From a virus (taxonomy: Duplodnaviria > Heunggongvirae > Uroviricota > Caudoviricetes), in the IMG/VR virus record IMGVR_UViG_2869965101_000006: DNA of 36,398 nucleotides; one strand, given 5' to 3'. Positions 4,339 through 33,972 of the stretch are shown here, piece after piece. Position numbers and translations under genes: made by a program. Under the pieces are notes generated by a model. That model saw only the letters and a program-made list of their open reading frames with translations, did no database searches and was not told where the DNA came from. Position 1 is the stretch's first letter, and every line of letters begins with the position of its first letter.

Positions 4339-4609
4339 TTACGCAGTCAGGTACTTGAGCTACATGGCATCAGCCATGGTTCGGCCGGAGCAAGAAGCAT
4401 CGCCACAATGGCAACCCGGAGAGGCTACCAGATGGGACGCTGGCTTGCTGGCAGGCTCATGAAAGAGCTGGGGCTGGTCAGCTGTCAGCAGCCGACTCAC
4501 CGGTATAAACGTGGTGGTCATGAACATGTTGCTATCCCTAACTACCTTGAAAGGCTGAACCGCCCCGGGAATCCTGGAGACTAAACTCCCTGAGAAAGAG
4601 GTAAACAGG

Positions 4610-4932: not shown

Positions 4933-4936
<4 letters not shown>
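4610..4936 (+). CDS. IS629 OrfA
   Basis: 108-aa [24 protein letters not shown]..., IS3-family OrfA. Confidence 0.9.
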
Positions 4937-6395
<1,459 letters not shown>

Positions 6396-6406
6396 TGACC
6401 ACTTCA

Positions 6407-7012
6407 AACCGCAAAAAAGCGAACGTCATGCGCCCGGTGGAGTACCAGAACGGCGAAGCATTCACTATCCGTAACGTACGGGTTATGCCTGAATCCATTC
6501 CGGCTGGCTTTAAGGCACTGGCTGACATGAGTCCGTTTGAATCCCTGCTGATTGTGGATTTGGGCGGAACCACGCTGGATGTGGCAAAGGTTCAGGGGCA
6601 ACTGGCAGGTATCAGCCAGGTGTTTTGCGATCCACACGTGGGCGTTTCTCTGATGGCCGATGCCGTACTGTCGGTGATGGCCACTAACGGTATGCGCACC
6701 AGTCACCACATCGCCAATACCATTATCGAACATCGCCATGATGAAGCCTGGCTGCGCCAGCACATCCACAATGACGCGCATTACGCCAGCCTGATGGCGG
6801 TAATTCGTGAAAAGGAAGAAACACTGAAACAACGCGTGATCCGCGCGCTGGCGGGTTTTTCGGGTTACGGGCGGGTGATGGTTGTCGGTGGAGGGGCGGA
6901 GATTGTGGCACCCGCTATCCGCGAAGCCTGCGGAGTTAATGCGACTTTCATCGCGGACGGGGTGCCACAGTTTGCTCTGGTTAATGGGCTGTACGCAATG
7001 GACAAGGAGTAA
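6407..7012 (+). pseudogene. parM/stbA-like actin-type segregation ATPase, 5'-truncated by the IS911 boundary
   Basis: Reading frame begins exactly at the IS911 end; translation (…TFTIRNVRVMPESIPAGF…LLIVDLGGTTLDV…) matches the C-terminal ~200 aa of plasmid R1 ParM as recalled. Confidence 0.7.
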
Positions 7013-11885: not shown

Positions 11886-11921
11886 ACGTTTAACAGTATC
11901 CAGGGTGAAGGAGAAGGACGA

Positions 11922-16299: not shown

Positions 16300-16832
16300 G
16301 CATGAGTACCACAACACGAAAATTTAAAACCATTATCACCAATACGGGTGCAAAAAAATTAGCTCAGGTAGCCGCGCCAGATGGTAAGCCTGTCCGCCTG
16401 ACTCATATGGCCGTGGGCGACGGTGGCGGCACGTTGCCCACACCAGACAGTAAGCAGACCCGTCTGGTGCATGAGGTGTGGCGACATACTGTTAATCGCG
16501 TCATCCTGGACGCAACACATCAGAACCGCATTATTGCGGAGCTGGTTATTCCTCCTGAAACGGGCGGATTCTGGATCCGGGAAATTGGTGTATTTGATGA
16601 GCACGGCGATTTAATCGCGGTGGGAAATACTGCCGAAAGTTACAAGCCAGCCGTTGCCGAAGGGTCCGGTCGTGCACAAACATTTCGCACCATTCTGACC
16701 GTATCCAGCACTGCCACCGTGGCGCTTACCGTGGACAACACCATGGTGATGGCCACAGTGGATTACGTGGATGACAAACTGAAAGAGCATGAACAGTCAC
16801 GACGTCACCCGGACGCCTCGCTGACCGCAAAA

Positions 16833-17228
16833 GGCTTTGTTCAACTCAGTAGCGCCACTAACAGCGTGTCTGAAACGCAGGCTGCAACGCCGAAAGCAGT
16901 AAAGGCCGCGTATGATCTTGCTAACGGTAAATATACTGCGCAGGATGCCAGCACGACGCGAAAAGGCCTTGTCCAGCTCAGTAGCGCCACCAACAGCACG
17001 TCTGAAACGCAGGCTGCAACGCCGAAAGCAGTAAAGGCCGCGTATGACCTTGCTAACGCAAAATATACCGCTCAGGACGCCACGACGGCACAAAAAGGGA
17101 TAGTCCAGCTCAGTAGTGCCACCAACAGCACGTCTGAAACACTGGCCGCGACATCGAAAGCGGTTAAGGCGGTAATGGATGAAACGAACAAGAAAGCGCC
17201 CTTAAACAGTCCTGCGCTGACCGGAACG
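16833..17228 (+). repeat. about three tandem 132-bp coding repeats in the tail fibre gene
   Basis: Near-identical DNA units starting near 16833, 16965 and 17097, encoding …VQLSSATNS.SET.AATPKAVKAAYDLAN.KYTAQDA…. Confidence 0.8.
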
Positions 17229-17565
17229 CCAACAACGCCAACTGCGCGACAGGGAACGAATAATACCCAAATCGCAAGCACGGCTTTCGTTATGGCTGCG
17301 ATTGCCGCCCTTGTAGATTCGTCACCTGACGCACTGAATACGCTGAACGAGTTAGCGGCGGCGCTGGGAAACGACCCGAATTTTGCGACCACCATGACTA
17401 ACGCGCTTGCGGGTAAGCAACCGAAAGATGCCACCCTGACGGCGCTGGCCGGGCTTGCTACTGCGGCAGACAGGTTTCCGTATTTTACGGGGAATGATGT
17501 CGCCAGCCTGGCAACCCTGACAAAAGTCGGGCGGGATATTCTTGCGAAATCGACCGTTGCTGCCG

Positions 17566-17591
17566 TTATCGAATACCTCGGTTTACGAGAA
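17566..17591. other. gix/hix-type inversion crossover site, left copy inside the fibre gene
   Basis: TTATCGAATACCTCGGTTTACGAGAA matches the reverse complement of 21021..21046 at 21 of 26 positions, with an identical ACCTCGGTTTAC core. Confidence 0.6.
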
Positions 17592-18009
17592 CTCGGCACA
17601 AGCGGGGAGAAAATACCGTTACTCAGTACAGCGAATACCTGGACCAATCGACAAACATTCAGCGGTGGCCTTTCTGGGGAACTGTCCGGCAATGCCGCTA
17701 CTGCAACAAAGCTGAAAACAGCACGAAAAATTGCTGGAGTTGGTTTTGATGGTTCTAGCGATATTTCAATTAGTGCCAAAAATGTCAATGCATTTGCACT
17801 CCGACAAACAGGTAATACTGTTAATGGTGATACATCCATTGGATGGAATTGGGATAGTAGTGCATATAACGCCCTGATTGGTGGTGCATCTGCATTAATT
17901 CTTCACTTTAATATAAATGCTGGTAGCTGTCCTGCCGTACAATTCCGTGTGAATTATAAAAATGGTGGCATTTCCTACAGGTCGGCTCGTGATGGTTATG
18001 GGGTTGAAT

Positions 18010-18777
18010 GGTGATGCTGCCAACTTACTGATTTAGTGTATGATGGTGTTTTTGAGGTGCTCCAGTGGCTTCTGTTTCTATCAGCTGTCCCTCCTGTTCA
18101 GCTACTGACGGGGTGGTGCGTAACGGCAAAAGCACTGCCGGACATCAGCGCTATCTCTGCTCTCACTGCCGTAAAACATGGCAACTGCAGTTCACTTACA
18201 CCGCTTCTCAACCCGGTACGCACCAGAAAATTATTGATATGGCCATGAATGGCGTTGGATGCCGGGCAACTGCACGCATTATGGGCGTTAGCCTCAACAC
18301 GATTTTACGTCACTTAAAAAACTCAGGCCGCAGTCGGTAACCTCGCGCATACAGCCGGGCAGTGACGTCATCGTCTGCGCGGAAATGGACGAACAGTGGG
18401 GATACGTCGGGGCTAAATCGCGCCAGCGCTGGCTGTTTTACGCGTATGACAGGCTCCGGAAGACGGTTGTTGCGCACGTATTCGGTGAACGCACTATGGC
18501 GACGCTGGGGCGTCTTATGAGCTTGCTGTCACCCTTTGACGTGGTGATATGGATGACGGATGGCTGGCCACTGTATGAATCCCGCCTGAAGGGAAAGCTG
18601 CACGTAATCAGCAAGCGATATACGCAGCGAATTGAGCGGCATAACCTGAATCTGAGGCAGCACCTGGCACGGCTGGGACGGAAGTCGCTGTCGTTCTCAA
18701 AATCGGTGGAGCTGCATGACAAAGTCATCGGGCATTATCTGAACATAAAACACTATCAATAAGTTGGAGTCATTACC
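18010..18777 (+). mobile_element. IS1, 768 bp, with 9-bp target duplication GGGTTGAAT
   Basis: Ends GGTGATGCTGCCAACTTACTGAT… and …ATCAATAAGTTGGAGTCATTACC; insA 18065..18340 and insB frame 18385..18762; duplication at 18001..18009 and 18778..18786. Confidence 0.9.
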
Positions 18778-19066
18778 GGGTTGAATTAGGTTGGTCAGAT
18801 TTCTATACCACGACACGAAAACCTTCAGCGGGAGATGTTGGTGCATATACGCGGGCAGAATGTAACTCAAGGTTTATTACAGGTATTCGCCTTGGCGGTC
18901 TGTCATCTGTTCAGACATGGAATGGTCCCGGCTGGTCTGACAGGTCAGGTTATGTCGTTACGGGTTCAGTTAACGGAAACCGTGATGAATTAATTGATAC
19001 AACACAGGCAAGGCCAATTCAGTATTGCATTAATGGGACGTGGTATAACGCGGGGAGTATTTAACG

Positions 19067-19600
19067 ATGATGCACTTAAAAAACATTACTGCTGGCAACC
19101 CTAAAACAAAAGAGCAATACCAGCTAACAAAGCAATTTAACATCAAATGGCTTTATTCAGATGATGGAAAAAACTGGTATGAGGAGCAAAAGAATTTCCA
19201 GCCAGACACTTTGAAAATGGTCTATGACCATAACGGCGTTATTATTTGTATTGAAAAGGATGTTTCAGCAATTAATCCGGAAGGCGCAAGCGTCGTTGAA
19301 TTACCTGATATTACAGCAAATCGCCGGGCTGATATTTCGGGGAAATGGTTGTTCAAAGATGGCGTAGTGATAAAGCGAACTTATACCGAGGAAGAGCAGA
19401 GGCAACAAGCGGAAAATGAAAAGCAAAGCCTGTTGCAACTTGTCAGGGATAAAACCCAGCTATGGGACTCACAGCTACGGCTGGGCATCATTTCCGACGA
19501 GAATAAACAAAAATTAACCGAGTGGATGCTCTATGCGCAGAAAGTCGAATCTACAGACACCTCCAGCCTGCCAGTAACGTTTCCCGAACAACCAGAATGA
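19067..19600 (+). CDS. tail fibre assembly protein (P2 G-like)
   Basis: 177-aa ORF directly after the fibre gene; paralogue of the inverted copy at 19629..20156. Confidence 0.75.
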   Translation: MMHLKNITAGNPKTKEQYQLTKQFNIKWLYSDDGKNWYEEQKNFQPDTLKMVYDHNGVIICIEKDVSAINPEGASVVELPDITANRRADISGKWLFKDGVVIKRTYTEEEQRQQAENEKQSLLQLVRDKTQLWDSQLRLGIISDENKQKLTEWMLYAQKVESTDTSSLPVTFPEQPE

Positions 19601-19628
19601 GAGAAGGCCCGATATTGGGCCTTAATTT

Positions 19629-20156
19629 TTACTCAGGCTTTTGTGGCCATTCGGGATTTGCTGTATCCACACGGCTGACCAGAACGCTGTAGCGTTCCCA
19701 TGACTCCAGTCGTGTGCGTTCCTCATCCATCGCCATATTCAGCCTGACAGCGCGTTCCAGTGGCTGAATAACGCTTTCAGCTTCAGAAAGCAACGCGACC
19801 TTTTGTGATTCGGCCTGTTGTTGCTGTTCGTCTGCTGTATAAATCCGCTTAACCACAGTTCCGTCCTTAAACATCCACTTCCCTGAATCATCGGCGCGAC
19901 GATTGGCTGTTATATCTGGAATCTCAACGACACTAAAGCCTTCGGGATTAAGCGTTGAGGCATCTTTGGTTATGGCAACAATAATATTATTTTCGTCGTA
20001 TACAATCTTTATGGTGTCGTCCTGAAAGTTATTTACTTCCTCATACCAGTTTTTACCGTCTTCGGACCATAACCAGATAACATCAAAATTCTTTGTTAGC
20101 TGATATTGTTCTTTTGTTTTTGGATTTCCGGACTTAATATTTTTTAAATGCTGCAT
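19629..20156 (-). CDS. alternative tail fibre assembly protein of the invertible segment
   Basis: 175-aa ORF; N-terminal ~45 residues nearly identical to the 19067..19600 product, then divergent. Confidence 0.75.
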
Positions 20157-20159
20157 AAT

Positions 20160-21020
20160 TTACACCTGTGCGACGTTATACCATGTGCCATTGATGTATT
20201 TTTGTATTGGTCTGAAGATGGCTTCATCATCGCCATCTACTTCACCAATGATTCTTAATCCGGTAATTGCGTGTCCGGCTTTTTCATAACGACCACCACG
20301 CGCCATCAATTGAACAACACGCGTACCCAGGCGAACATCTTTTACATAGCGTGAATCAAAATTCCCCCAGTTGCTGGGCTGTATCTGACCGTTAACAGAA
20401 AATATTACCGAGTTATCTGTATTTCGCTGGCTATAGAAATGCCATCCTGCCTCATCGCCTAACTCTGCAACTACTGGACGGGTTGAAGCACCCCATAAAT
20501 TAAACGTTGCATTCTTTGTGAAGTTGTTGGAGCTGGATAGCGTGAATTTTTTACCATCCCCGGCCTGAATATTTTTAAAAGCAATAGCCACTCCATTCTG
20601 AAAGCGGAATACACGCTGACTATTAGCATAAACATCCAGAATACCGTCTCCATTCTGTTTAAATCCGGTGTCATTATCACCAAGAACAATAGAGCTACCA
20701 CCTAACGCATTCGTCGAACCAACTCCAAGACTGCCATTAATGACAGCATTAACAAGAATATTTAGTGCATCCCATTTCAGCGTCATCAGGTCTTTTGTTG
20801 TGGTGCTCTGGCGGCTTCTCCATTTGAAATATTCATTGCCGTTGTCGCCTGTTTCAAACCACATGTATGAATCAGTGTCACCATCGGCATCATTTTTAAA
20901 TCCAATCTTCGCCCAGTCAGTATTTCGAATCCAGGCAAGGATTGAGTCATTTTCAAAAGTAAGCCCACCGGACAAGGTATCGCCATTTTTTTGCACGGCG
21001 TTACCAGCCCTGTTTACCGT
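20160..21020 (-). CDS. alternative tail fibre C-terminal segment, promoterless and start-less; expressed only after inversion
   Basis: Frame stays open on the minus strand from 20160 up to the gix site at 21021..21046; no ATG of its own. Confidence 0.65.
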   Translation of the reverse strand, partial: TVNRAGNAVQKNGDTLSGGLTFENDSILAWIRNTDWAKIGFKNDADGDTDSYMWFETGDNGNEYFKWRSRQSTTTKDLMTLKWDALNILVNAVINGSLGVGSTNALGGSSIVLGDNDTGFKQNGDGILDVYANSQRVFRFQNGVAIAFKNIQAGDGKKFTLSSSNNFTKNATFNLWGASTRPVVAELGDEAGWHFYSQRNTDNSVIFSVNGQIQPSNWGNFDSRYVKDVRLGTRVVQLMARGGRYEKAGHAITGLRIIGEVDGDDEAIFRPIQKYINGTWYNVAQV

Positions 21021-21046
21021 TTCCTGTAAACCGAGGTTTTAAATAA
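21021..21046. other. gix/hix-type inversion crossover site, right copy
   Basis: TTCCTGTAAACCGAGGTTTTAAATAA, closely resembling the Mu gix sequence as recalled; inverted partner at 17566..17591. Confidence 0.6.
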
Positions 21047-21100
21047 TGGCCGTTTCTGGCCTGCATGGCATGATTTGCGCTTTTGGACGGGAGATTCAGT

Positions 21101-21700
21101 GTGCTGATTGGCTATGTAAGGGTATCAACAAATGACCAGAATACAGACCTGCAACGAAACGCTCTTGTTTGTGCAGGATGTGAACAAATATTTGAAGATA
21201 AATTAAGCGGGACAAAGACAGACCGACCGGGATTAAAACGCGCTTTAAAGCGCCTTCAAAAAGGTGACACGCTGGTTGTCTGGAAACTGGATCGCCTCGG
21301 GCGAAGCATGAAACATCTGATTTCTCTCGTCGGGGAACTACGGGAGCGAGGGATTAATTTTCGCAGTCTGACCGACAGCATAGACACATCTTCTCCAATG
21401 GGGCGTTTTTTCTTCCACGTGATGGGTGCCCTGGCTGAAATGGAACGTGAATTAATTGTTGAACGTACACTGGCCGGGCTGGCGGCAGCGCGCGCAAGGG
21501 GGCGCACAGGCGGACGTCGACCGAAGCTGACAAAAGAACAGCATGAGCAAATAGCAAGGCTAATCAAAAACGGGCACGACAGAAAACAACTGGCAATAAT
21601 TTACGGCATTGGCACATCGACGATTTATCGTTATCACCCTGTAGGCGATATACAGACTGAAGAAACAACCGGGCAGACTCAGGAAAATGAAAACCGCTAA
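21101..21700 (+). CDS. Gin/Pin/Cin/Hin-family serine DNA invertase
   Basis: GTG start giving MLIGYVRVSTNDQ… with catalytic-serine motif and C-terminal HTH; near-identical to Mu Gin as recalled. Confidence 0.85.
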   Translation: MLIGYVRVSTNDQNTDLQRNALVCAGCEQIFEDKLSGTKTDRPGLKRALKRLQKGDTLVVWKLDRLGRSMKHLISLVGELRERGINFRSLTDSIDTSSPMGRFFFHVMGALAEMERELIVERTLAGLAAARARGRTGGRRPKLTKEQHEQIARLIKNGHDRKQLAIIYGIGTSTIYRYHPVGDIQTEETTGQTQENENR

Positions 21701-21718
21701 TCTGACCATTAGCGGTTT
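21689..21718. terminator. bidirectional stem-loop terminator between the convergent invertase and U genes
   Basis: AAAACCGCTAAT-ctgacc-ATTAGCGGTTTT with a T-run on the plus strand and an A-run on the other side. Confidence 0.6.
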
Positions 21719-21728
21719 TTGTGTTAAA

Positions 21729-22223
21729 TCAGAACAGCCCTTTAACTGAACTGGCCGCGCTGTTAAGAGATGATGTCACCTTATCTTTGAAGCCGGACAG
21801 CATATCACTGAACGATGAGGATTGCAGGCGCTCCCGCAAATCCTCATCACAGCGTTCAAGAGTCAGTGAAAATTCTATCTTTTTCGCCTTACCGTAGCGA
21901 TCAAACTCGGAGCGGGTCGTATTCGTTTCAGTCAGGACATACATGCCGTAAATCTGCCCGACGCCATCAATCAAAGGCCAGGGTCGTCCTGTATACGCCT
22001 GCGTGGTCAGCAGCGACAGCGACACTTCGCCACCTGTAATTTCAGGATAAAGCACACCAGAAAGAACGATGCGATCATCACCTGCACCGATATACTGCCA
22101 GCTTGCTGAACGGTTAACGCGTTCATTTTTCACATGCCGCCAGCTTTTGTTTTGCTGTAACTGCTGATGCGGCAGCGTGCGCAGCTCAAAAACAAACATG
22201 CCGTAGATCATCATCATGGCCAT
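21729..22223 (-). CDS. tail protein (P2 U-like)
   Basis: 164-aa ORF with recalled similarity to P2 gpU (…GMFVFELRTLPHQ…). Confidence 0.75.
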   Translation of the reverse strand: MAMMMIYGMFVFELRTLPHQQLQQNKSWRHVKNERVNRSASWQYIGAGDDRIVLSGVLYPEITGGEVSLSLLTTQAYTGRPWPLIDGVGQIYGMYVLTETNTTRSEFDRYGKAKKIEFSLTLERCDEDLRERLQSSSFSDMLSGFKDKVTSSLNSAASSVKGLF

Positions 22224-22229
22224 GACTCC

Positions 22230-25046
22230 TCAATCTTTATCGTAAAAACAGCCACGCCCGGCACGGGCGCGCCGTTCCATTTCTGCCCTGACCATTTCAC
22301 CGACCAGTTTCGCCAGTTCGCGGGGATTCTGCGTAACAACGTTATGCAGATGAACATGAATTTCACCACCAAATCCGGAGGCAACAGGCTCCCGGTTACG
22401 GGAAGTTACAGGAACTGATGCCACTGGAGATCGTATAGCCTCCGCCACCGGGCGGGAGCTGGCCGCAACAACAGGGACCAGCGCCGGAGGCAGCGGAGCC
22501 GGAACCACGGGTGTGATATTAATTGCGGGGGCAGGCTTACTGACCTGCGCAATCTTCCGCTCCTGCCACTCCCCACGAACAGCAAGTGCTCGGGGCAGGT
22601 TTTTAAAGACAATATCGCCGGGGCCAATGCGTTTTTTCGTCTCCTCAACCAGCTTACCTGTGTTATCAGCAATTTTGCTGAGTCTGCGCAGCGTACCGGT
22701 ATTGCTGTCTGTGAGCGGTTTATTGTCTTTGGGGTTATCACCTCCGGTGCCATTGCCATTTTCCACAGGCTTCGGCGGATTGATTTTCGCCAGGTCCCCC
22801 TGAAGCAAGGCAACCTTGTCCTGAAGAATGGCCGCACGCTGTGCGTCTTCGATTTTCTTGCGCGCCCTTTCCGCTTCATCCGGAAGCACACCAAGCTTTT
22901 CAAGTATCCACGCCAGCGTATCCAGCAACATTTTTGCAGGTGTCAGAACAAGTTGTAACGCACCGCCAAGAACGTTACCGAATATCTCGCCAGCACTGGT
23001 ACATTTATCCAGAGTTTCCTTGCTGGACTCCATCGGTGACAGCAGCGATTTAAACCAGTTAAACACCTGGCTGATCCCACTCCCGATTGCGTCAAAAACA
23101 GGACCAAACCGTTCAAATGTTTCGCGCAACGGGGTCAGCCTTTCCATAATCCCGCTGAACACCCCGGCAAAAAATGCCCTGATGGGATCCCAGTATTTCC
23201 AGATAAGAACGGCAGCTCCGGCAAGCGCAGCCACGATAAGACCAACCGGACTGAACAACGCCCCGATAGCGCCTCCCAGTAAAGAAACGGAACCCGTCAC
23301 CATTCCCCATAGTGCTGGCAGAACCCTGACAGCATTCATTGATCCGGTCAGGAGGGAAAAACCAAGACGCAGTTTTGCCAGCGGGCCAGCAAGCACACCA
23401 ATAGCCAGCGACAACGAGCCAACCGTTGCAGTCATTGCCAGCAATGCACCGCCTGCAATCAGTAGCTGGCGCGTCAGTGCGGGATGGGCCTGCGCCAGCG
23501 CCGTCACCTTTGATACCACACGCGTGAGCCACTGCGTGACAGAACGCAGCGGACCGTCAATCAGATCTGCAATGCGGATGCGCAACCCTTCCCATGCACT
23601 GCTGAGTGATTTCAGATCGCCGTCAAGGTTGTTGGCCATAACCTTTGCCGTGCGTTCAGCCTCACCGCGCGCGCCTTCAAGTTCTTTTCTCAGTTTGGGT
23701 AAGGAGCCGTCACCTGCCGCATCAACGAGGGCCATAAATGATGTGAAAGCCTCTTCTCCGGCAATGTCCTTAAAGAACGATACCCGGTCAACTTCCCCGT
23801 ATTTGCGGGTAGCTTTATAAAGGTCAGCCAGCACATCCTCCATCGGGCGCATTTTGCCCCCGGCATCCGAGACAGACACGCCAAGCTCTTTCAGCGCCTC
23901 TGCTGCCGCCTTTGGCGGTGATGCCAGACGAGCCAGGCTGGCACGCATTGCCGTACCAGCATCACTCCCCCTGATACCCATATTCGCCAGCACGCCCGCC
24001 ATCGCTGCGGCCTGCTCCAGAGATATTCCCAGCTTACCCGCCACCGGACCTGCATATTTCATGGTTTCACCCAGTGCGCGAAGGTCAGTGTTGGTACGGG
24101 TAAACGCTGCGGTGAGTGTGTCGCCGACCCGGTCCATCTGGTCAGCAGAAAGACCGAACTGCGTCAGAATATTTGAGCCAATATCCGCCGTCTCACCGAG
24201 GTCCATACCGCCAGCCGTTGCCATGCTCAGTACGCCAGGGAGCGCAGCCTGAATGGCCTGTGGTGTAAAGCCAGCCATTGCAAGAAATGCCTGTCCACTG
24301 GCGGCATCGCCTGCGGTGAACTGCGTTTCAGAGCAAAGTTTTAACGCCTGCTCACGCAGCGCCTTAAACTGCGGGCTGTTCTGGTCGATTCGCGTCAGTG
24401 CCTGAACGCGGAACATCTCTTTGCCGAACCCGATCGCAGGCTGCAAAAAACGCCCGGCAGCATAGCCGCCCGCCGCTGCCGCACCAATTGCCAGCGCACC
24501 ACCTGTTTTCAGTTTTCCCGCTGTTTCCTGCGCGCGCGAATACCGCTCACGCGCCCGTGTTACACGCGCAAGCGCCTGCCGTTCGCGTTCAAGCTGGTTG
24601 TTGTACTGTTCGGTGCGTCTGATGGCCTGCTGGATGGTGTTATCGCTGCCTGTCAGGGAAATGCCGTGGCGTTTCAGCTCTCCGCCAAGCTCCCGCATTT
24701 TCTGAATTTCCCGTGTGCGCGATTCATTCAGGCGTTCAAGCCGGGTGCTTAACTGCTGCATCAGCTTTTGTTGTTTTTCGCTGAGCACTGTACCCGTGCG
24801 TTGTAACTGATTAAGGGCGTTAAGCTGGCGTCGTGCTTTCACGATGCCCGCATCCGCTTTACTGACAGCGTCACGGGCGCGCTCAAATGATCGCGCCTGA
24901 CGCTCGAGATTTTTGATCGCCCCCTGCGTTCGCTGGATGGAGTCACCAAACTGCCCCATCAGGCGGCGGGCGTTTTCGGCAGGCCGGGTCAGCCTGTCAA
25001 CGGCGCTGAAAGCGACCCGGATATCAAGAGTCTTCATTGTCTGCAT
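22230..25046 (-). CDS. tail tape measure protein (P2 T-like)
   Basis: About 940 aa, Ala/Gly-rich with coiled-coil and hydrophobic stretches; intact ORF; start approximate. Confidence 0.85.
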   Translation of the reverse strand: MQTMKTLDIRVAFSAVDRLTRPAENARRLMGQFGDSIQRTQGAIKNLERQARSFERARDAVSKADAGIVKARRQLNALNQLQRTGTVLSEKQQKLMQQLSTRLERLNESRTREIQKMRELGGELKRHGISLTGSDNTIQQAIRRTEQYNNQLERERQALARVTRARERYSRAQETAGKLKTGGALAIGAAAAGGYAAGRFLQPAIGFGKEMFRVQALTRIDQNSPQFKALREQALKLCSETQFTAGDAASGQAFLAMAGFTPQAIQAALPGVLSMATAGGMDLGETADIGSNILTQFGLSADQMDRVGDTLTAAFTRTNTDLRALGETMKYAGPVAGKLGISLEQAAAMAGVLANMGIRGSDAGTAMRASLARLASPPKAAAEALKELGVSVSDAGGKMRPMEDVLADLYKATRKYGEVDRVSFFKDIAGEEAFTSFMALVDAAGDGSLPKLRKELEGARGEAERTAKVMANNLDGDLKSLSSAWEGLRIRIADLIDGPLRSVTQWLTRVVSKVTALAQAHPALTRQLLIAGGALLAMTATVGSLSLAIGVLAGPLAKLRLGFSLLTGSMNAVRVLPALWGMVTGSVSLLGGAIGALFSPVGLIVAALAGAAVLIWKYWDPIRAFFAGVFSGIMERLTPLRETFERFGPVFDAIGSGISQVFNWFKSLLSPMESSKETLDKCTSAGEIFGNVLGGALQLVLTPAKMLLDTLAWILEKLGVLPDEAERARKKIEDAQRAAILQDKVALLQGDLAKINPPKPVENGNGTGGDNPKDNKPLTDSNTGTLRRLSKIADNTGKLVEETKKRIGPGDIVFKNLPRALAVRGEWQERKIAQVSKPAPAINITPVVPAPLPPALVPVVAASSRPVAEAIRSPVASVPVTSRNREPVASGFGGEIHVHLHNVVTQNPRELAKLVGEMVRAEMERRARAGRGCFYDKD

Positions 25047-25187
25047 TCCCGCTACGAAGTGCCGCTCGCTCACGCCAGCTAACCACTTCGCAGGGCGTCA
25101 TCATGAAGATTTCGGCGGGCGACCAGTTAAAAATGGCGGCAATATCCGCCACCAGATCTTCGATGTGCTCAAAGCACACCAGGGTGA

Positions 25188-25562
25188 TTACGCTGCCGTC
25201 TCCTGCACGCTCTTCGCGCCAGAGTCTGGCTCGCTCATAAAATTTACAGCCACAGCGCACAACTGAATAAAATCGCGTGACGACATTTTTTTAATCATCA
25301 CTTCATCCAGTCGTGGCGAGGTCACGCGAGGCAACAGCGTGAACATGGTATCCGCTTTCAGATTCAGCACATCAGACAGCGACAGACCACGCAGGGATCC
25401 AGCCTGCTCAATAGCCCCGGTGATCTCCACATACGTGATTTTTTCGCCACCACGCTCAATTGGTCGGGTCAGTTTTACGCCACGTTCGACAGCCATATCC
25501 TCAACTGCCGTCACATTATCCGCCACGGTGTTATTCCGGGTTTCAGTATCGATGTCTTTCAT
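25188..25562 (-). CDS. tail assembly chaperone E, with a -1 frame extension (E') to 25024
   Basis: Overlapping ORFs 25188..25562 and 25024..25260 in 0 and -1 frames directly upstream of T; slippery candidates at 25239..25245 and 25286..25292. Confidence 0.65.
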   Translation of the reverse strand: MKDIDTETRNNTVADNVTAVEDMAVERGVKLTRPIERGGEKITYVEITGAIEQAGSLRGLSLSDVLNLKADTMFTLLPRVTSPRLDEVMIKKMSSRDFIQLCAVAVNFMSEPDSGAKSVQETAA

Positions 25563-25620
25563 CTGTTGTCTCCTTTTCAGTCAGAGGCGACGCACTGCGC
25601 CGCCAGCATATTACTTATCA

Positions 25621-26905
25621 GCCAAGCCCAAGCGCGGAACGGATGCGATCGGGCACAATGTCCTTGCCGTCCTTCGGTGATGCTGCCAACTTACTGATTT
25701 AGTGTATGATGGTGTTTTTGAGGTGCTCCAGTGGCTTCTGTTTCTATCAGCTGTCCCTCCTGTTCAGCTACTGACGGGGTGGTGCGTAACGGCAAAAGCA
25801 CTGCCGGACATCAGCGCTATCTCTGCTCTCACTGCCGTAAAACATGGCAACTGCAGTTCACTTACACCGCTTCTCAACCCGGTACGCACCAGAAAATTAT
25901 TGATATGGCCATGAATGGCGTTGGATGCCGGGCAACTGCACGCATTATGGGCGTTAGCCTCAACACGATTTTACGTCACTTAAAAAACTCAGGCCGCAGT
26001 CGGTAACCTCGCGCATACAGCCGGGCAGTGACGTCATCGTCTGCGCGGAAATGGACGAACAGTGGGGATACGTCGGGGCTAAATCGCGCCAGCGCTGGCT
26101 GTTTTACGCGTATGACAGGCTCCGGAAGACGGTTGTTGCGCACGTATTCGGTGAACGCACTATGGCGACGCTGGGGCGTCTTATGAGCTTGCTGTCACCC
26201 TTTGACGTGGTGATATGGATGACGGATGGCTGGCCACTGTATGAATCCCGCCTGAAGGGAAAGCTGCACGTAATCAGCAAGCGATATACGCAGCGAATTG
26301 AGCGGCATAACCTGAATCTGAGGCAGCACCTGGCACGGCTGGGACGGAAGTCGCTGTCGTTCTCAAAATCGGTGGAGCTGCATGACAAAGTCATCGGGCA
26401 TTATCTGAACATAAAACACTATCAATAAGTTGGAGTCATTACCCCGTCCTTCCGGTAAATGAAGTTCAGCAGGTCAATCTCCCACAACGGGCGATCGTTA
26501 ACACTCAGCTTGTAGTAGGTGTTTTAATGGCGTAAGTGTGTGATGTGGCTTCGCCCTGTTTGGCTTCCCCCATATCAATTTCCGTCACACGTCCGCGCAT
26601 TTCGACTTCATACAGGTCGCTTTCTGCATCGGTGTAGTATTCACCCGCAAAACGCAGCAGCGTGCCGTCAATCGTGCCGCCATACTTAAGGAACAGCTCA
26701 CGAACTGCGCCCCCATGACAAAGCTCGCATCAAGCGCGGAGTCGTCCAGACCGAGATCAATACTTACCGCACCCATCATGCCACCACCCCGGTAGCTGTC
26801 GGTTTTGCGCGTCAGCTTAGGCAGAGTGACGGACGTCACATTACCCACTTCGTTTTCACCATCCACAAACAGCGTAAAAAAGCGAAGATGTTTTGGCACA
26901 GCCAT
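25621..26905 (-). pseudogene. tail tube (P2 FII-like) destroyed by IS1 and frameshifts
   Basis: N-terminus (…SVTLPKLTRK…DLGLDD…) matches FII; homology then changes frame at least twice (around 26500 and 26700) and is split by IS1. Confidence 0.75.
25676..26443 (+). mobile_element. IS1, second copy, 768 bp, with 9-bp target duplication CCGTCCTTC
   Basis: Identical to the copy at 18010..18777, same orientation; duplication at 25667..25675 and 26444..26452. Confidence 0.9.
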
Positions 26906-28089
26906 CAGGCACCTCCCAGCACCGCAAATGCGGGTTCAAAGTATTCATCAGTAAACGTCTGGTAAAGCTCCATGTCTTCCAGTGGCGGAACGGGCGTATA
27001 TTTGTAGCGAATACGCACACGTCCCTGACGTAAATCCGTGGTGCTGTTATCCACCACGTCATACCAGCACTCCGCGCCAATCAGTTTCCCGGCAGTCACC
27101 AGTGAATCCAGTTTTGCCCTGATGGCACTGATAACATCCTTCACATTCGCAGGCGTCAGTGGACTGTCGATGGTTTCAAACTGCGCTTCCGCAATTGAAT
27201 CAGCCAGCACCTGTGCGGTTCGGGTATACACCTCAAAGATGTAGGCGTTCGTTTCCGGTGTGCGGTTACCCCAGAAGCGGACCCCGTTGCGACGAATAAT
27301 GGTCGTGATTTCTTTGTTGTTGAGGCTGTTGGCATCGCTGTCTTCGGCCTGCAACGACCAGAACACATGCCTCGACATCCCCAGCACATTTTTAACCGGA
27401 ACGTTGGACAGCGATTTGTGCCATCCCTGTTCATGGTCAATGTACGCACGAAGGCCGCACGCATAGGCAGGCGCGGGGAACGTTTCGTTTTTGCCATTTT
27501 TCGGGTTGTAGGCGATGAAGTCCGGCCATAAGAGCATCACCTCACGTTCGTTGAATTTCTGGCGGTAGGTAATTGCCTCGGCCATCGTGTTACAGCCATG
27601 ACATGAGGCATACACAAACGCGCGCAGTTTATCTGCAATCACGCACAGGGATTTTGTTACCGCCTCCGTGTCCAGCTCCGGCGCGGCCAGAATACGCGGA
27701 CGGTATCCGATGCTTTCATCCTGCTCTGCAACAAGCAGCGCATACATCCCCGTATAGCTGCCGTCATCCTCAGAACCACCGATAACCAGTTGATCCTGCG
27801 TCTTTCCGTCTTCTTCTTTGTGTTCAGCCACGCGAACGACGATCACCTTTGTGCTCACCTGGTCTGCGATGGCCTTAAGCGCACGATAAAGCGTCCCCGT
27901 TGTCCCGCATTTTCCCAGCACGTCATTGACGCGGGTCAGCAGTGTGGGCTTGTTCAGCGGGAACAGCTTCGCGTCCGCATCATCCGCCGTTGCCACGATA
28001 CCGATAACGCTGGAATCAACATCGTTAATCGCTGTTACCAGGTCGGTATTCTCCGTAACACGGGCACCATGAAAACGAGTTTCACTCAT
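26905..28089 (-). CDS. tail sheath protein (P2 FI-like)
   Basis: 394-aa intact ORF with sheath-like sequence. Confidence 0.85.
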   Translation of the reverse strand: MSETRFHGARVTENTDLVTAINDVDSSVIGIVATADDADAKLFPLNKPTLLTRVNDVLGKCGTTGTLYRALKAIADQVSTKVIVVRVAEHKEEDGKTQDQLVIGGSEDDGSYTGMYALLVAEQDESIGYRPRILAAPELDTEAVTKSLCVIADKLRAFVYASCHGCNTMAEAITYRQKFNEREVMLLWPDFIAYNPKNGKNETFPAPAYACGLRAYIDHEQGWHKSLSNVPVKNVLGMSRHVFWSLQAEDSDANSLNNKEITTIIRRNGVRFWGNRTPETNAYIFEVYTRTAQVLADSIAEAQFETIDSPLTPANVKDVISAIRAKLDSLVTAGKLIGAECWYDVVDNSTTDLRQGRVRIRYKYTPVPPLEDMELYQTFTDEYFEPAFAVLGGA

Positions 28090-28246: not shown

Positions 28247-29356
28247 ATGACCGACACCACCATGCAATTGCTCAGTCAGGGCACGGCCCCCGTGAAAATG
28301 CCGGATTTTGATATTCTCTCGGAGGGTAAAACGCTGTCAGGCGTGGCGGAGCGCCTGATGAGCCTGTAACTGACCGACAACCGGGGATTTGAGGCGGACC
28401 AGCTCACCATCACGCTGGATGATGCGGATGGTCAGTTGCAGCTACCGCCACGGGGCGCGCGTCTGACGGTTCTCATTGGCTGGAAAGGGGAACCGCTGAC
28501 AGAAAAAGGCACTTACATTGTTGATGAAATCGCTCACGAAGGACCGCCGGACAGGCTGACTGTTTCAGCCAGAAGCGCAGATTTTCGGGATGAATTTAAC
28601 GTTAAACGTGAGGTGTCCTGGCATGATGTGACCGTTGAGCGTGTGGTATCCGCCATCGCTCATCGATACGGTCTGAAACCGCAAATCAGCGAAATGCTGA
28701 TGGATATCGAAATCGACCACGCCGACCAGACCGAAGAAAGCGACATGTCCTTTCTTACGCGCATGGCGGAAATGCTGGGAGCAATCGCCACGGTAAAAAG
28801 CGGCAATCTGTTATTCATCATGCCAGGTGGTGGCGTGAACGCACAGGGGCAGCCGTTGCCCTCGTTCGCCATTACACGCAGCAGCGGCGATCGCCATCAG
28901 TTCCGCATTGCTGACCGCGAGGCGTATACGGGGGTACGCGCCTACTGGCTTGATCTTAATTACGGGAAAAAGAAAAAAGTCAGCGTGAAACGCCGCAAAC
29001 CGCCAAAACCCAAAAAGGAGAAAAGCAGCAGTCGGGAAGGCGACTATATGGAAGGTGCGGAAGGCAACGTGTTTGTGTTACGCAAGACTTATCAGAACGA
29101 GCAGGCAGCAAGACGCGCAGCGGCGGCAAAGTGGCAGCAGCTACAACGCGGAGCCGCATCATTCTCCATCACGCTGGCGCGTGGTCGTGCAGAACTCTAT
29201 CCCGAAATGCATGGCACAGTGACAGGCTTTAAAAGCGAGATTGATTATCAGGACTGGATTATTGCAAAAGCCGAGCACACCATTGATAACAGCGGCTTTA
29301 CCACGCAGCTTGAACTTGAAGCAAAAATCCCGGAATGGATAGCAGAAACAGAATAA
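28247..29356 (+). pseudogene. tail protein D (P2 D-like) with in-frame TAA
   Basis: ATG at 28247 after a GGGAGGGAG RBS; in-frame TAA at 28367..28369 inside the conserved …LTDNRGFEADQL… motif; the rest (28436..29356) is open. Confidence 0.75.
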
Positions 29357-29604: not shown

Positions 29605-32600
29605 ATGATTGGACAATTTTTAAGTGCAACAGAGATTTTAGCAAAGAACTATGTTCGTAATAAAATGGTTAAAAATCCATTTTATTCGAATTTAAAATGG
29701 AATTTTATTGAAAAAAACATCATAAGATTAACATCCTCACCGGTTAAATCAGTACTTTGCATATCAGCTTTTTCATTTGTACTACTTTATGTTGGATATT
29801 TAAACGAATTATTTATAAAAAATAATCTTTTACATTATTTCCCGTTTAGGCATTCATTAACCGAATGGCAAACAACCATTTTAAGTGGCCAATTGACAAT
29901 TATTGGTATTGTATACCCCCTTGTTATAGGTTTAGTAAGTATCTTATTCCAAAAAAAGGCAGATAGAAAAATAGCCCAAACTGCTTATCAGCGTTACTCA
30001 GGATTCATGCTTGCTGGACTCAGCGGGCTTTTCTTATCAGGATTTATACTTCTCAGTGTACTAATTAAAACTGTCTTTGGAAGTTATCTTTATGGTATAG
30101 CTTGTCTAATCAGCATATTATGGCTTTTGATAAACATAGTTCTTTCTATTTGGTTCTTTATCGTGAGTCTTGAAATTCTTGATGATGTAAAACGGCAAAT
30201 AATTATAAAGCGATACATTGCCTTCGAAATAGTAATGCCCCATATTTGTAACAAAATCTCAGCCAAGCTTAGGTTATACCCTATCTATCAAAAACATAAC
30301 TATTCAAATTTAGAAATCAAGCAAGCCGATTACAAAGGAGAATACATATCTGTGGCTAGCAGTTATTCTAAGGAAGATGAGTTAAGTTTATATCACCGTC
30401 CTTTTCAACTTACTCTTAATCTTATTAATTACCAACTAAAAAAGAAGAATCATTTTGCGTCATTTGTCATTGGTGATAATCGTACAAAAGAAACAGAATC
30501 CACGGGTAAGATACTTTTTAGCGTTAAAAATATCAAACCAGACAGCTTATTAATAAAAATACTTAAGCAATGTTTTTATAGGGCTCCGATTAAAGGAGGA
30601 GATTTTTCCGTAAGTCTTACAATGCAGGCTATAACAGCAGATACGTATATGTATCTGCGGGATTCTGATCTCATTAGTTTTGACAATGCTATCTCTGCAT
30701 TAATTAATAACTTTAATAATCTCTGCGATTTGTATTTTTTTCAAGATGATAATACCAACAATAACTTCTTACTGATCACTACAGAATTATTTGAACGGAG
30801 TTTTCAATATGAGTTTTCAGATGAAGTTTATAAAATATCAAATAATTCCATGGATAAAATTAATCTTTCTGAAAGATTTTTTGAATTATGTCTTTGGAGC
30901 GGAGTGCGTATTATCAATAATAGAAAACATCTTATCAGCAATGAACTTTGTATCTATATGGGAATTACTCGTTCACAATGGTCAATATTAACAGAATGGT
31001 TCCGAAACAACCAATCACTCTTAAATGCCTCGCTTCGTTCACGTTATAATCGTATATTAAGAACCTATACCACTGTTTGGGAGCAATATCAAGAAAGCAT
31101 AAACTTTCGTTTCTGCAATACAGAGAATTCAGATTTATTTGAATTATTTTGCAAAACGCAACTACAAGAACTTCCATCGATGATTATTGATGCAACACAG
31201 ACTCGCGATCCTTCTACTATTGATACAGCCGTCGATCTTATTAACCGATGGCAGCACTCAATGAATATTGACAGCCATTCGGTAGAAAAATACAGTTACA
31301 AAGGCCAGCTTTTTAACCCGGGTTTTTTCATATCCAAAAAACTAAACTTCAATTCAGACAGAGAGTGGTTCAATATTGCCATCATAAATGCGTTGACTGA
31401 CATGCGTATATGCACATGTCTTTATCTGACATCAAGAATCAATACTTCTGACAAACTAATGACACATTACATTAAACTTATTTTAGAGGGTAAACTTATT
31501 GACCAAACCGGTGGATATGAAACTCCCACTGAAGAAATTGATAATGCAAGCCAACTAATCAAGATATTAATTAGAATCTGCCTGTGGACATGGTCTGAAA
31601 ATATGGAACACAATGGGTGGATGAATAGTTTAGCAAGGCGTTTACGTGACTATGATAAAACAGACATGGTGATGGGCAGAGTTTACAGTAATGTTTTTGA
31701 CTGTGGATTTATTGATATGGAACAATCATGGGTTCAGCTATTATTAATTTTTTCTAACAAGAACGATAGCGTATCAAAAGAAATAAAAGAAGCAATAGAA
31801 AACAACTATATAACATATCGTGAGAAGCAACGACTCATTGGAGTATTATCAAAAATTTGTAACTCCATCGAATACACTAAAATCAAGCTGACTTTAACAT
31901 TGGACGATCTCCAAACAAAAAAAGAAAACTTAAGAAAGTTGCTTCAAGAGCATATTAACATGCTAAAGAAAGATCTTGATATGAGACTTCAGGATGCTGC
32001 CATAGATGTACATCGACTAGATAGCACTGCACGTAAAACATCAGAACATCTTCGTAAACGCATCAAGAAAACGCTCCCTCTTTCACTTTTTAAATCTATT
32101 GATTTTAAGCAGGCTAGCGATTGTTTCACAAAACATAAGATATCTATTAAGATAGATAAAGAACCGTATGCCGAAGGAATAGAATCCATCCCTTATATCA
32201 ATGAAGGTGATATTCAAGCAGACTTAATTCTCAAGGACATCCAGAGAATAATACTTTCAAATTTATTTAGCACTGGCTGTTCGCAACATACCGTAATAGA
32301 AGATTTCAATATGTTGATTGATCACATAAAATCATCTGCTGACTTGGCTGGCAAACTGGTTCTTGTGATGAGTAAAGAGATCTTTCAGCAATATAATCGT
32401 ATGCTTTTCGATAATCCCAACCTCAGAGAACTAATGAGAAAAAATGATGATGGCTCTATGAACATAACTACTGAATCCGGTACCCGTAAGGTTTACTTCT
32501 TACCATTTGTTAATCAACCATTTTCTCTTGTGGTAAAGGATAACTACTTCACTAAATTAATTATTAGAGAATATGATAATAATAAGTTAGTAAATGTCAC

Positions 32601-32724
32601 TTCAGAGAATATCAAAAGTGACTCAGATAAATTCAAGCTAACTCTTAACTATGAGTTGAATGTAGTATTTGAAGGAAACGCTGATTTAAAAATAGCTCAC
32701 TCGCAAAGAGTGACATCAGAATAA
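29605..32724 (+). CDS. large hypothetical membrane-anchored protein (1039 aa), AT-rich cargo gene
   Basis: Uninterrupted ORF; four hydrophobic helices in the first ~190 aa then ~850 aa of Asn/Lys/Ile-rich soluble sequence; no Walker A, HxH or other obvious catalytic motif by eye. Confidence 0.75.
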   Translation: MIGQFLSATEILAKNYVRNKMVKNPFYSNLKWNFIEKNIIRLTSSPVKSVLCISAFSFVLLYVGYLNELFIKNNLLHYFPFRHSLTEWQTTILSGQLTIIGIVYPLVIGLVSILFQKKADRKIAQTAYQRYSGFMLAGLSGLFLSGFILLSVLIKTVFGSYLYGIACLISILWLLINIVLSIWFFIVSLEILDDVKRQIIIKRYIAFEIVMPHICNKISAKLRLYPIYQKHNYSNLEIKQADYKGEYISVASSYSKEDELSLYHRPFQLTLNLINYQLKKKNHFASFVIGDNRTKETESTGKILFSVKNIKPDSLLIKILKQCFYRAPIKGGDFSVSLTMQAITADTYMYLRDSDLISFDNAISALINNFNNLCDLYFFQDDNTNNNFLLITTELFERSFQYEFSDEVYKISNNSMDKINLSERFFELCLWSGVRIINNRKHLISNELCIYMGITRSQWSILTEWFRNNQSLLNASLRSRYNRILRTYTTVWEQYQESINFRFCNTENSDLFELFCKTQLQELPSMIIDATQTRDPSTIDTAVDLINRWQHSMNIDSHSVEKYSYKGQLFNPGFFISKKLNFNSDREWFNIAIINALTDMRICTCLYLTSRINTSDKLMTHYIKLILEGKLIDQTGGYETPTEEIDNASQLIKILIRICLWTWSENMEHNGWMNSLARRLRDYDKTDMVMGRVYSNVFDCGFIDMEQSWVQLLLIFSNKNDSVSKEIKEAIENNYITYREKQRLIGVLSKICNSIEYTKIKLTLTLDDLQTKKENLRKLLQEHINMLKKDLDMRLQDAAIDVHRLDSTARKTSEHLRKRIKKTLPLSLFKSIDFKQASDCFTKHKISIKIDKEPYAEGIESIPYINEGDIQADLILKDIQRIILSNLFSTGCSQHTVIEDFNMLIDHIKSSADLAGKLVLVMSKEIFQQYNRMLFDNPNLRELMRKNDDGSMNITTESGTRKVYFLPFVNQPFSLVVKDNYFTKLIIREYDNNKLVNVTSENIKSDSDKFKLTLNYELNVVFEGNADLKIAHSQRVTSE

Positions 32725-32859: not shown

Positions 32860-33096
32860 ATGTTCCGTTGTCCGCTTTGTGGCGCATCTGCCCGTATCCG
32901 CACCAGTCGTCCGGAAAATGATTCAAACACCGTGAGACAAAAGTATTATCAGTGTAACAATCTAGAATGCGGCGTATGTTTCTCAACACTGGAAGCCTTC
33001 CACAAATTCACTTCAAAGCACGCCTCCCCCATTCACTCATCAGAGGGCATCCCGTTGGATTTGCCCCTATATTTCCAGACATCTGTTATCACTTAA
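32860..33096 (+). pseudogene. ogr: late-gene activator ogr, 3' end replaced by the IS2 insertion
   Basis: MFRCPLCGASARIRTSR…YYQCNNLECGVCFS zinc-finger N-terminus like P2 Ogr; from codon 66 the frame is IS2 sequence; original 3' end at 34388..34452. Confidence 0.8.
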
Positions 33097-33972
33097 CCCA
33101 TTACAAGCCCGCTGCCGCAGATATTCCCGTGGCGAGCGATAACCCAGCGCACTATGCGGATGCCATTCGTTATAATGCTCGAACGCCTCTGCAAGGTTCT
33201 TTGCTGCCGTTAACCCGTCTGGTTTGGGCATGATACTGATGTAGTCACGCTTTATCGTTTTCACGAAGCTCTCTGCTATTCCGTTACTCTCCGGACTCCG
33301 CACCGCCGTGTTCTTCGGTTCAAGTCCCAACATCCGGGCGAACTGGCGTGTTTCATTAGCCCGGTAGCATGAACCATTATCCGTCAGCCACTCCACTGGA
33401 GACGACGGAAGATCGTTGCCGAAGCGGCGTTCCACCGCTCCCAGCATGACGTCCTGTACTGTTTCACTGTTGAAGCCGCCGGTAGTCACCGCCCAGTGCA
33501 GTGCCTCACGATCACAGCAGTCCAGCGCGAACGTGACACGCAGTCTCTCTCCGTTATCACAGCAGAACTCGAACCCGTCAGAGCACCATCGCTGATTGCT
33601 TTCTTTCACGGCCACTCTGCCTGTATGTGCCCGTTTCGATGGCGGTACAGCAGGTTTTCGCTCAAGCAACAGGGCATTCTGGCGCATGATCCGGTAAACA
33701 CGTTTGGCATTGATCGCAGGCATACCATCAAGTTCTGCCTGTCTGCGAAGCAGCGCCCATACCCGACGATAACCATACGTGGGCAGCTCTCCGATAACAT
33801 GGTGTATACGGAGAAGCACATCCGTATCATCAGTGTGACGACTGCGGCGGCCATCCATCCAGTCATCGGTTCGTCTGAGAATGACGTGCAACTGCGCACG
33901 CGACACCCGGAGACAACGGCTGACTAAGCTTACTCCCCATCCCCGGGCAATAAGGGCGCGTGCGCTATCCAC
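33067..33972 (-). CDS. insD: IS2 InsD (OrfB, DDE transposase)
   Basis: 301-aa ORF; its 3' end is the sequence duplicated in the remnant at 3580..3844. Confidence 0.85.

Follow-up and report, generated by a model that had tools for sequence, protein, structure and literature searches.

A probable Gin-type inversion switch for the tail fibre of a decayed P2-family prophage

The window, i.e., the whole 36,398-nt stretch of DNA that was analysed, contains a tail fibre gene, two pairs of alternative fibre ends and assembly genes on opposite strands, a serine DNA invertase gene and two 26-bp inverted sites that bracket the alternative pairs (Table 1). As judged from its sequence, the element that carries this locus is a Peduoviridae prophage of the Xuanwuvirus/P88-like genus, and its bacterial host is probably Shigella boydii. 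The closest classified phage is a Xuanwuvirus (Peduoviridae), and P2-type late genes were recognised by the Pfam domains P2_Phage_GpR, Phage_tail_S, GPW_gp25, Baseplate_J, Tail_P2_I, Phage_P2_GpU, Phage_GPD and Phage_GPO; an intact relative carries late genes that PGAP names as P2-type. The late gene set of P2-type phages comprises Q, P, O, N, M, L, X, the lysis genes, R, S, V, W, J, I, H, G, FI, FII, E, T, U, D and ogr. Deletions have removed the holin gene and the capsid genes N, M, L, X and part of O from the window prophage, other DNA stands in place of its gpA region, and insertion sequences are present as two IS1, one IS2 and one IS3-family element. The second IS1 (25676-26443) is identical to the one in the segment and sits in the tail tube gene (FII).

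An earlier note, made from the letters of the DNA, had spoken of a P2-type prophage, which holds at the level of the family Peduoviridae; the FI-FII-E-T-U operon, however, is convergent with the fibre operon, and decay is far more advanced than that note described. On the P2 map this operon is collinear with the fibre operon. That the FI-U block was turned by the invertase is ruled out by the lack of further gix-like sites in the window and by the same arrangement in classified Xuanwuvirus phages. We also discarded a tailocin, with capsid genes deleted and tail genes kept, because IS1 interrupts both the tail tube and the fibre gene.

Table 1. Features of the fibre and invertase region (positions in the window)
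Feature	Position	Strand	Remarks
Constant N-terminal fibre part Sc, P2 gpH-type	16302-17577	+	up to the crossover point; ORF 16302..18014
Left 26-bp recombination site	17566-17591	+	TTATCGAATACCTCGGTTTACGAGAA; inside the fibre gene
Variable fibre C-terminus Sv, proximal piece	17592-18009	+	joined to Sc at present; cut off by IS1
IS1, 768 bp, within Sv	18010-18777	+	ends, terminal repeats, target duplication; Pfam InsA and DDE_Tnp_IS1
Variable fibre C-terminus Sv, distal piece	18787-19064	+	orphaned by IS1; Mu S'-type (G(-)) receptor-binding tip
Tail fibre assembly/chaperone gene, Mu U'-type	19067-19600	+	177 aa; pairs with Sv; Pfam Caudo_TAP
Alternative assembly gene, Mu U-type	19629-20156	-	175 aa; own ATG; Pfam Caudo_TAP; silent in the present orientation
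Alternative start-less fibre C-terminus Sv'	20160-21038	-	292 codons and stop; intact (frame analysis)
Right 26-bp recombination site	21021-21046	+	TTCCTGTAAACCGAGGTTTTAAATAA
Serine DNA invertase, Gin/Din family	21101-21700	+	199 aa; GTG start; intact ORF; just outside the segment
Presumed Fis-dependent recombinational enhancer	21119-21190		5' end of the invertase gene, nt 19-90
Terminator-like hairpin, 12-bp stem	21690-21719		separates the convergent genes for invertase and gpU

The constant fibre part Sc has an N-terminal Phage_tail_fib collar and three Phage_fiber_2 repeats (Pfam), and its tandem fibre repeats, three of 132 nt each, lie at 16829-17224 (tandem repeat family D1). Its ORF terminates at 18014, within IS1. 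The proximal piece of Sv matches fibres of Xuanwuvirus and Citrobacter phages and not that of Mu, and the last 165 aa of the IS1-free fibre are 87% identical to the Mu S' C-terminus. The chaperone encoded behind it is 97% identical to Mu U', 95% identical to P1 U' and the same as the UTI89 protein. On the opposite strand, the second chaperone is 96.6% identical to Mu U and differs by one substitution from the expressed NU14 protein, and Sv' shares 55% identity with P1 S and 47% with the variable part of Mu S. The DNA of the segment shares 90-95% identity with G, C and related segments in phages of the Mu and P1 types, and the segment has the G/C-type layout of a constant 5' fibre part outside and two opposed start-less 3' parts inside, each followed by its own chaperone gene.

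The minus-strand genes had been described as a start-less pair (19629..21020), which is correct for the fibre C-terminus, whereas the assembly gene has an ATG of its own. Similarly, the minus-strand frame was said to stay open across the right site. It is open over the crossover point but runs into a TAA (plus-strand 21039-21041) in the outer half-site, which is harmless because inversion replaces that half.

The proposal of a Gin-family invertase just outside the segment is upheld by concordant evidence from domains (Resolvase PF00239, 1.4e-50, and HTH_7 PF02796, 4e-13, in Pfam), from protein identity (80% to Gin, 77% to PinE, 72% to Cin) and from the top solved-structure match, which is Gin (4m6f/3uj3, E=3e-100). 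The context of Ser9, MLIGYVRVS, is unchanged across the window invertase, Gin, Cin and PinE. The UTI89 and NU14 invertases are 100% identical to the window protein, and this exact sequence occurs on at least 1000 contigs. The first 240 nt of the gene are 97.5% identical to Mu gin, and the 3' third has diverged from Mu gin and codes for a longer C-terminal tail. The presumed enhancer lies at the gene position annotated as enhancer in P1 cin (nt 19-90) and is identical to Mu gin at 72/72 and to P1 cin at 55/72 nucleotides. By this likeness, the 72-nt region would be Fis-dependent, and the inversion reaction would depend on Fis. PADLOC, run on the invertase and its neighbours, returned zero matches.

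The coordinates given earlier for two inverted, gix-like 26-bp sites proved accurate almost to the base. The left site consists of the halves TTATCGAATACC and GGTTTACGAGAA around TC (crossover dinucleotide 17578-17579) and the right site of TTCCTGTAAACC and GGTTTTAAATAA around GA (21033-21034); they are in inverted orientation, and both have a GA core when read in one sense. The arms of the inverted repeat (17562-17591 and 21021-21050) span 30 nt and are 80% complementary. Their common core, AAWACCTCGGTTTAC, is present in 2 copies in the window, one per strand, as compared to 0.01 expected by chance. Aligned to the reference gix and bix sites from Table 3 of PMC3241671, the left site agrees with Mu gix at 22/26 positions and the right site at 24/26; for the published S. 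boydii sites, the agreement is 24/26 with bixL and 25/26 with bixR. Alignment to known recombination sites, on which the earlier note had made its reading depend, thus succeeded for both gix and bix, with the GA core kept. This dinucleotide is common to gix and bix, whereas cix and pix have AA, and both window sites fit the dix consensus (Table 3, PMC3241671). A relaxed pattern scan found no credible third crossover site in the window, the sole extra match within the segment (19452-19463) being at chance level. A shufflon or multi-site cluster (R64 Rci, p15B Min, the EPEC P2-like three-site locus), with at least three sites, is ruled out by the presence of two sites only. Inverted repeats are listed in the window as 21 pairs.

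When the segment is inverted in silico about the site centres, the result is an in-frame fibre of 716 aa, collinear with the one annotated in NU14, in line with the view that the alternative pair is intact. The same system has been flipped in nature. Across 12.4 kb, the sole difference between UTI89 and NU14 is a 2662-bp stretch that lies between the site cores and is the exact reverse complement (0 mismatches), with breakpoints in the two 26-bp sites. Among complete E. coli genomes, 329 have the Sc-Sv junction and 358 have the Sc-Sv' junction. Sequencing and PCR have also revealed inversion in prophages of the P2-like and P88-like kinds (PMC4272514; bioRxiv 10.1101/2022.05.07.487787). The window segment measures 3455 bp, or 2678 bp minus IS1 and its duplication; G and C segments, at 3-4.2 kb, invert in nature, and the window segment is lengthened by the 768-bp IS1.

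On either side of this IS1 lies the 9-bp target duplication GGGTTGAAT (18001-18009 and 18778-18786). Excision of the element in silico restores a fibre ORF of 661 aa, which is collinear with that of UTI89 and departs from it by 8 substitutions and zero indels. The orientation now joined to the constant part is indeed the one destroyed by IS1, as had been read from the split Sv. IS1 is absent from this Sv position in 23/23 full-length E. coli relatives, and the IS1-bearing allele is on record in a single assembly and one orientation. In a contig collection limited to one genome per species, and hence uninformative on this point, the left IS1/fibre junction had 0 hits.

With both sites, the invertase and both in-frame fusions found, and the same system flipped between UTI89 and NU14, the earlier interpretation as a Gin-type invertible host-range segment stands, and we consider it highly probable (roughly 0.93) that the region forms a two-site inversion switch of the Gin/Din family, set in a P2-family (Xuanwuvirus/P88-like) prophage and directed at its tail fibre. 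Briefly, invertase dimers would bind the two inverted 26-bp sites and, aided by an enhancer that binds Fis and lies within the 5' end of the invertase's own gene, cut both at the central GA/TC dinucleotide, rotate the half-sites and religate them, which would invert the 3455-bp segment. In the window orientation, the constant part (~426 codons) would be joined to the Mu S'-type tip, followed by the U'-type chaperone; in the opposite orientation, it would be in frame with the Mu S/P1 S-type tip, giving the 716-aa fibre, followed by the U-type chaperone. We infer that the invertase is expressed and that the segment still flips in the IS1-bearing strain. The switch looks mechanically competent yet without a virion whose host range could change, because the capsid genes are lost and the second IS1 interrupts the tail tube gene. 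Since the prophage cannot make particles, "host-range switch" describes the ancestry of the locus and not a present phenotype.

An alternative with some, though clearly lower, plausibility is that the architecture is a relic that no longer inverts in this strain, its orientation having become fixed by an unexpressed invertase or by IS1 or the host background blocking synapsis. The strong decay of the prophage by deletions and insertion sequences would fit such a relic, as would the single assembly with its single orientation. A simple consensus scan also found no sigma-70-like promoter 5' of the invertase, which we do not count as a sign of silence. Against a relic, the stretch from the right site to the start codon resembles that of Mu, and Mu gin is expressed. 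Furthermore, the invertase ORF is intact and encodes the very protein of UTI89 and NU14, where the segment was flipped, the GA cores match in both sites, and the enhancer stretch is the same as Mu's.

Very improbable in our judgement is that the invertase has stayed intact in a dead prophage because it serves the host, e.g., in trans on other Din-type chromosomal sites. Din invertases reportedly cross-react on each other's sites, as Kutsukake in 2006 and Tominaga in 1991 are said to have found, and the Fin enzyme of Fels-2 can drive Salmonella flagellar phase variation. Such a role could account for the undamaged state of the invertase, both sites and the enhancer next to structural genes that are deleted or hit by insertion sequences. 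However, there is no sign of any other target, the window having just the two sites, chance readily explains why a gene of 600 bp should survive while the prophage decays, and the same intact gene is common in functional prophages. It is an equally slim prospect that host use preserves invertase, sites and enhancer in a prophage without capsid, replication and tail-tube functions, either through action in trans or through flipping of the IS1 in the segment relative to the identical copy at 25676-26443, as a means of switching the outcome of homologous recombination between the two. If so, IS1 copies in direct orientation would lead to deletion of the 7.7-kb block of invertase and tail genes, and inverted copies to its inversion. 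That the repeats lie by chance beside a resolvase-family gene to which they have no relation, there being no invertible segment, draws on the general frequency of short inverted repeats (the 21 pairs) and is already refuted by the core frequency, the near-identity of the sites to published gix and bix, the exact natural inversion at these sites, and the in-frame fusion.

The reading as a fibre inversion switch makes the locus a textbook Gin-type host-range switch of an already known kind, the same invertase and segment being common in E. coli and Shigella prophages, and its value lies mostly in correct annotation. The exact inversion between UTI89 and NU14 also provides a worked example of how public genomes alone suffice to verify a switch of this kind, and the window copy illustrates the decay of a Shigella prophage in which the recombination machinery outlasts the structural genes.

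The closest counterparts are P88-like prophages (UTI89/NU14, Escherichia phage 503458), which have the same gene order V-W-J-I-H, chaperone, chaperone', H', invertase and convergent U-T-E-FII-FI. The UTI89 recombination sites are identical to those in the window, and 23 full-length E. coli matches have 93.0-99.7% DNA identity over the aligned 86% of the query, the remainder being IS1. The window copy differs from these relatives in the IS1 in the fused tip, the second IS1 in FII, the capsid-gene deletion and the other insertion sequences.

The Mu G segment has the same layout (Sc, gix, Sv-U / U'-Sv', gix, invertase), and its U and U' are 96-97% identical to those of the window. In contrast to Mu, a transposable phage, the window element is a P2-family prophage, and its constant part is P2 gpH-type, matching Mu S in short repeats only. 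The Mu reference record is G(+), whereas in the window the S'/U'-type module occupies the expressed position. A segment that is itself part of a Mu prophage is ruled out by the gpH collar in Sc and by gpU and the tape measure gene, not com/mom, 3' of the invertase. The P1/P7 C segment (cin) and the e14 P segment (pinE) share the invertase family and the 26-bp site architecture. The P1 chaperones U and U' are 95% identical to those of the window, but cin lies on the other side of a 4.2-kb segment; the e14 fibre genes are unrelated to the window's at the BLAST level.

The S. boydii B segment with pinB (GenBank D00660) was compared by its sites and interval length. According to Tominaga et al. 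in 1991, it is reportedly G-like but set on a constant region unlike Mu's. Of 26 positions, bixL has 2 and bixR has 1 that deviate from the corresponding window site, and the flipped left site as found in NU14 equals bixL at 26/26. The D00660 interval with both bix sites spans ~3.1-3.2 kb (PMC3241671), as compared to 2678 bp in the window minus IS1, and the contents of the B segment and the window segment are therefore not identical. The presence of near-bix sites inside a P88-like, P2-family prophage suggests that the classical pinB/B segment resides in a similar prophage.

The earlier note had proposed a Gin-type invertible host-range segment, and this reading is supported by the sequence components, by compatible reading frames and by an exact inversion of the same system between the near-identical Escherichia coli strains UTI89 and NU14. 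The constant N-terminal fibre part (Sc) is at present fused to a variable C-terminus (Sv) on the plus strand, an alternative C-terminus (Sv') lies on the minus strand, and each tip has its own tail fibre assembly (chaperone) gene. A standard Gin/Din invertasome switch is the best explanation for this arrangement. Briefly, invertase dimers would bind the two sites, and Fis an enhancer within the 5' part of the invertase gene. The strands would be cut at the GA/TC core, the subunits would rotate, and religation would exchange fibre tip and chaperone. We infer that the invertase is expressed and active in the window's strain and that the reaction depends on Fis.

Features of the invertible segment and insertion elements in the window
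Feature	Position	Strand	Details
Fibre ORF	16302-18014		570 aa
Left 26-bp site	17566-17591		TTATCGAATACC-TC-GGTTTACGAGAA
IS1 in fibre gene	18010-18777		768 bp; target duplication GGGTTGAAT (9 bp) at 18001-18009 and 18778-18786
Assembly gene	19067-19600	+	
Assembly gene	19629-20156	-	
Start-less fibre C-terminus	ends at 20160	-	
Right 26-bp site	21021-21046		TTCCTGTAAACC-GA-GGTTTTAAATAA
Resolvase-family gene (invertase)	21101-21700		GTG start, 199 aa
Second IS1	25676-26443		target duplication CCGTCCTTC (9 bp); interrupts tail tube (FII) gene
Full IS2	33056-34383		before ogr
ISEc20 (IS110 family)	34975-36398		right end of window

This system inverts in nature. UTI89 and NU14 carry this prophage at the same chromosomal location; the flanking proteins are identical in both, and their invertase is 100% identical to that of the window. 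Over 12.4 kb compared, every base is identical between the two strains except for the 2662 bp between the site cores. This stretch is reverse-complemented exactly, without a single mismatch, and the inner half-sites have been swapped precisely as predicted by crossover at the core. Searches of complete E. coli genomes with 401-nt junction queries (at least 80% coverage) recovered the Sc-Sv junction of the window in 329 genomes and the Sc-Sv' junction, obtained by in-silico inversion, in 358. Coexisting orientations have been detected by sequencing and PCR in P2-like prophages of EPEC E2348/69 (PMC4272514), and likewise in a P88-like ST131 prophage (bioRxiv 10.1101/2022.05.07.487787).

The claimed inverted pair of 26-bp gix-like sites proved to be real. 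A repeat search of the window recovered 30-nt arms (17562-17591 and 21021-21050) with 80% complementarity, and the left and right sites match the gix sites of phage Mu at 22/26 and 24/26 positions and the published Shigella boydii bixL/bixR sites at 24/26 and 25/26, with a common GA core (Table 3, PMC3241671). Both sites contain the 15-nt core AAWACCTCGGTTTAC, which occurs in two exact copies in the 36.4-kb window, one per strand, compared to 0.01 copies expected from dinucleotide-preserving shuffles. No credible third crossover site was found in the window by a relaxed half-palindrome scan. In-silico inversion with crossover at the central dinucleotides (17578/79 and 21033/34) yields an in-frame Sc-Sv' fusion of 716 aa, which is collinear with the annotated 716-aa fibre of NU14 and differs from it by nine substitutions. 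The statement that the minus-strand frame stays open across the right site holds at the crossover point and is functionally right, but is slightly overstated, as a TAA (plus-strand 21039-21041) closes the frame in the outer half of the site. Likewise, the description of the minus-strand genes as a start-less pair is correct for Sv', but not for the chaperone gene, which has its own ATG.

Assignment of the neighbouring gene to the Gin-family invertases is borne out by its Resolvase (1.4e-50) and HTH_7 (4e-13) Pfam domains, by 80% identity to Mu Gin (77% to e14 PinE, 72% to P1 Cin) and by Gin entries 4m6f and 3uj3 as the best matches among solved structures (E=3e-100). The motif MLIGYVRVS, including Ser9, is invariant among the four proteins. 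The gene itself is a mosaic: its first 240 nt match Mu gin at 234/240 positions (97.5%), as compared to only 62/120 at nt 421-540, and the HTH-coding part is ~52% identical at the DNA level. The glutamate/threonine-rich C-terminal tail is a few residues longer than that of Gin and is missing from Cin and PinE. Nucleotides 19-90, the counterpart of a stretch annotated as inversion enhancer in P1 cin, are 72/72 identical to Mu gin and represent a putative enhancer. The exact invertase sequence is recorded on at least 1000 contigs, with ST131 among the sources.

As the earlier note had recognized, IS1 breaks the tip that is now joined to the constant part. When the element and one duplication copy are removed in silico, a 661-aa fibre is recovered, which is collinear with the UTI89 fibre (8 substitutions, no indel). 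All 23 complete E. coli genomes with end-to-end matches to the region lack this IS1, their 86% coverage corresponding to the query minus the 768-bp IS1, and the truncated fibre is recorded only in CP026762.1 (GCA_002949175.1), which includes the window. The second IS1 is 100% identical and in the same orientation; the two direct copies flank distal Sv, both chaperone genes, Sv', the right site, the invertase, gpU, the tape measure gene and the gpE region.

The label 'P2-type prophage' is right at the family level: E. coli GDSC2BY4G carries an intact relative that is a full P2-family prophage, and among classified phages the closest, Escherichia phage 503458 (Xuanwuvirus, Peduoviridae), shares its layout. 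The relative is ordered integrase, gpA, Q, P, O, N, M, L, X, lysis genes, R, S, V, W, J, I, H, chaperone, invertible module and invertase, followed by a convergent U-T-E-FII-FI block, D, a cargo gene and ogr. In the window, the minus-strand FI-FII-E-T-U operon (21729-28089) is convergent with the fibre operon and divergent from gpD (28436-29356, plus strand), unlike the collinear arrangement of P2 itself. A local rearrangement is ruled out, because phage 503458 and all E. coli relatives examined have the same layout.

Judged against the GDSC2BY4G copy, the window's prophage is badly decayed. A 3.4-kb deletion (joint at 11898-11910) takes part of O as well as N, M, L, X and the holin gene and leaves an O::M15-peptidase fusion ORF, and the place of the gpA region (3580-6407) is taken by an IS3-family element together with a partial IS2 (265 bp). 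A prophage in this state cannot form a virion, which leaves the switch without a phenotype to control in this genome. The gpD ORF (late control D/baseplate hub) has a TTG start and encodes 306 aa, compared to 369 aa in the intact relative; its 5' end may be damaged or its start miscalled. Between gpD and ogr, a 1039-aa ORF (29605-32724, plus strand) has 30-36% GC, compared to 52-59% in the prophage, and its N-terminal ~200 aa resemble several transmembrane helices. Searches of Pfam, PADLOC, NCBIfam and PHROGs gave no match for it, nor did tblastn against 50,697 phage records, and the PGAP name of its orthologues, 'MFS transporter', looks unfounded. It may encode a cargo or defence function at a P2-family hotspot. 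Its 90% cluster has 692 members from Shigella and E. coli, and the exact sequence is also present in Shigella boydii CDC 3083-94, an identity that makes S. boydii the probable host.

The kind of system is already known. The plus-strand chaperone shares 97% identity with Mu U', and the C-terminal 165 aa of the fibre, once IS1 is removed, share 87% with Mu S' of the G(-) type. On the minus strand, the chaperone shares 96.6% identity with Mu U, and Sv' is 55% and 47% identical to the variable parts of P1 S and Mu S, respectively. Three tandem 132-nt units in the constant fibre part (16829-17224) code for Phage_fiber_2 repeats and are 100%, 87% and 61% identical to the reference unit; fibre lengths of 661 aa vs 700 aa, differing within this region, suggest that repeat number varies among relatives. 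Unlike that of Mu, the constant part carries a P2 gpH-type N-terminal collar domain. At the DNA level, window positions 18792 to ~21050 share 90-95% identity with the invertible segments of Mu-type (SfMu, D108) and P1-type (P1, P7, D6) phages and with the matching region of P88.
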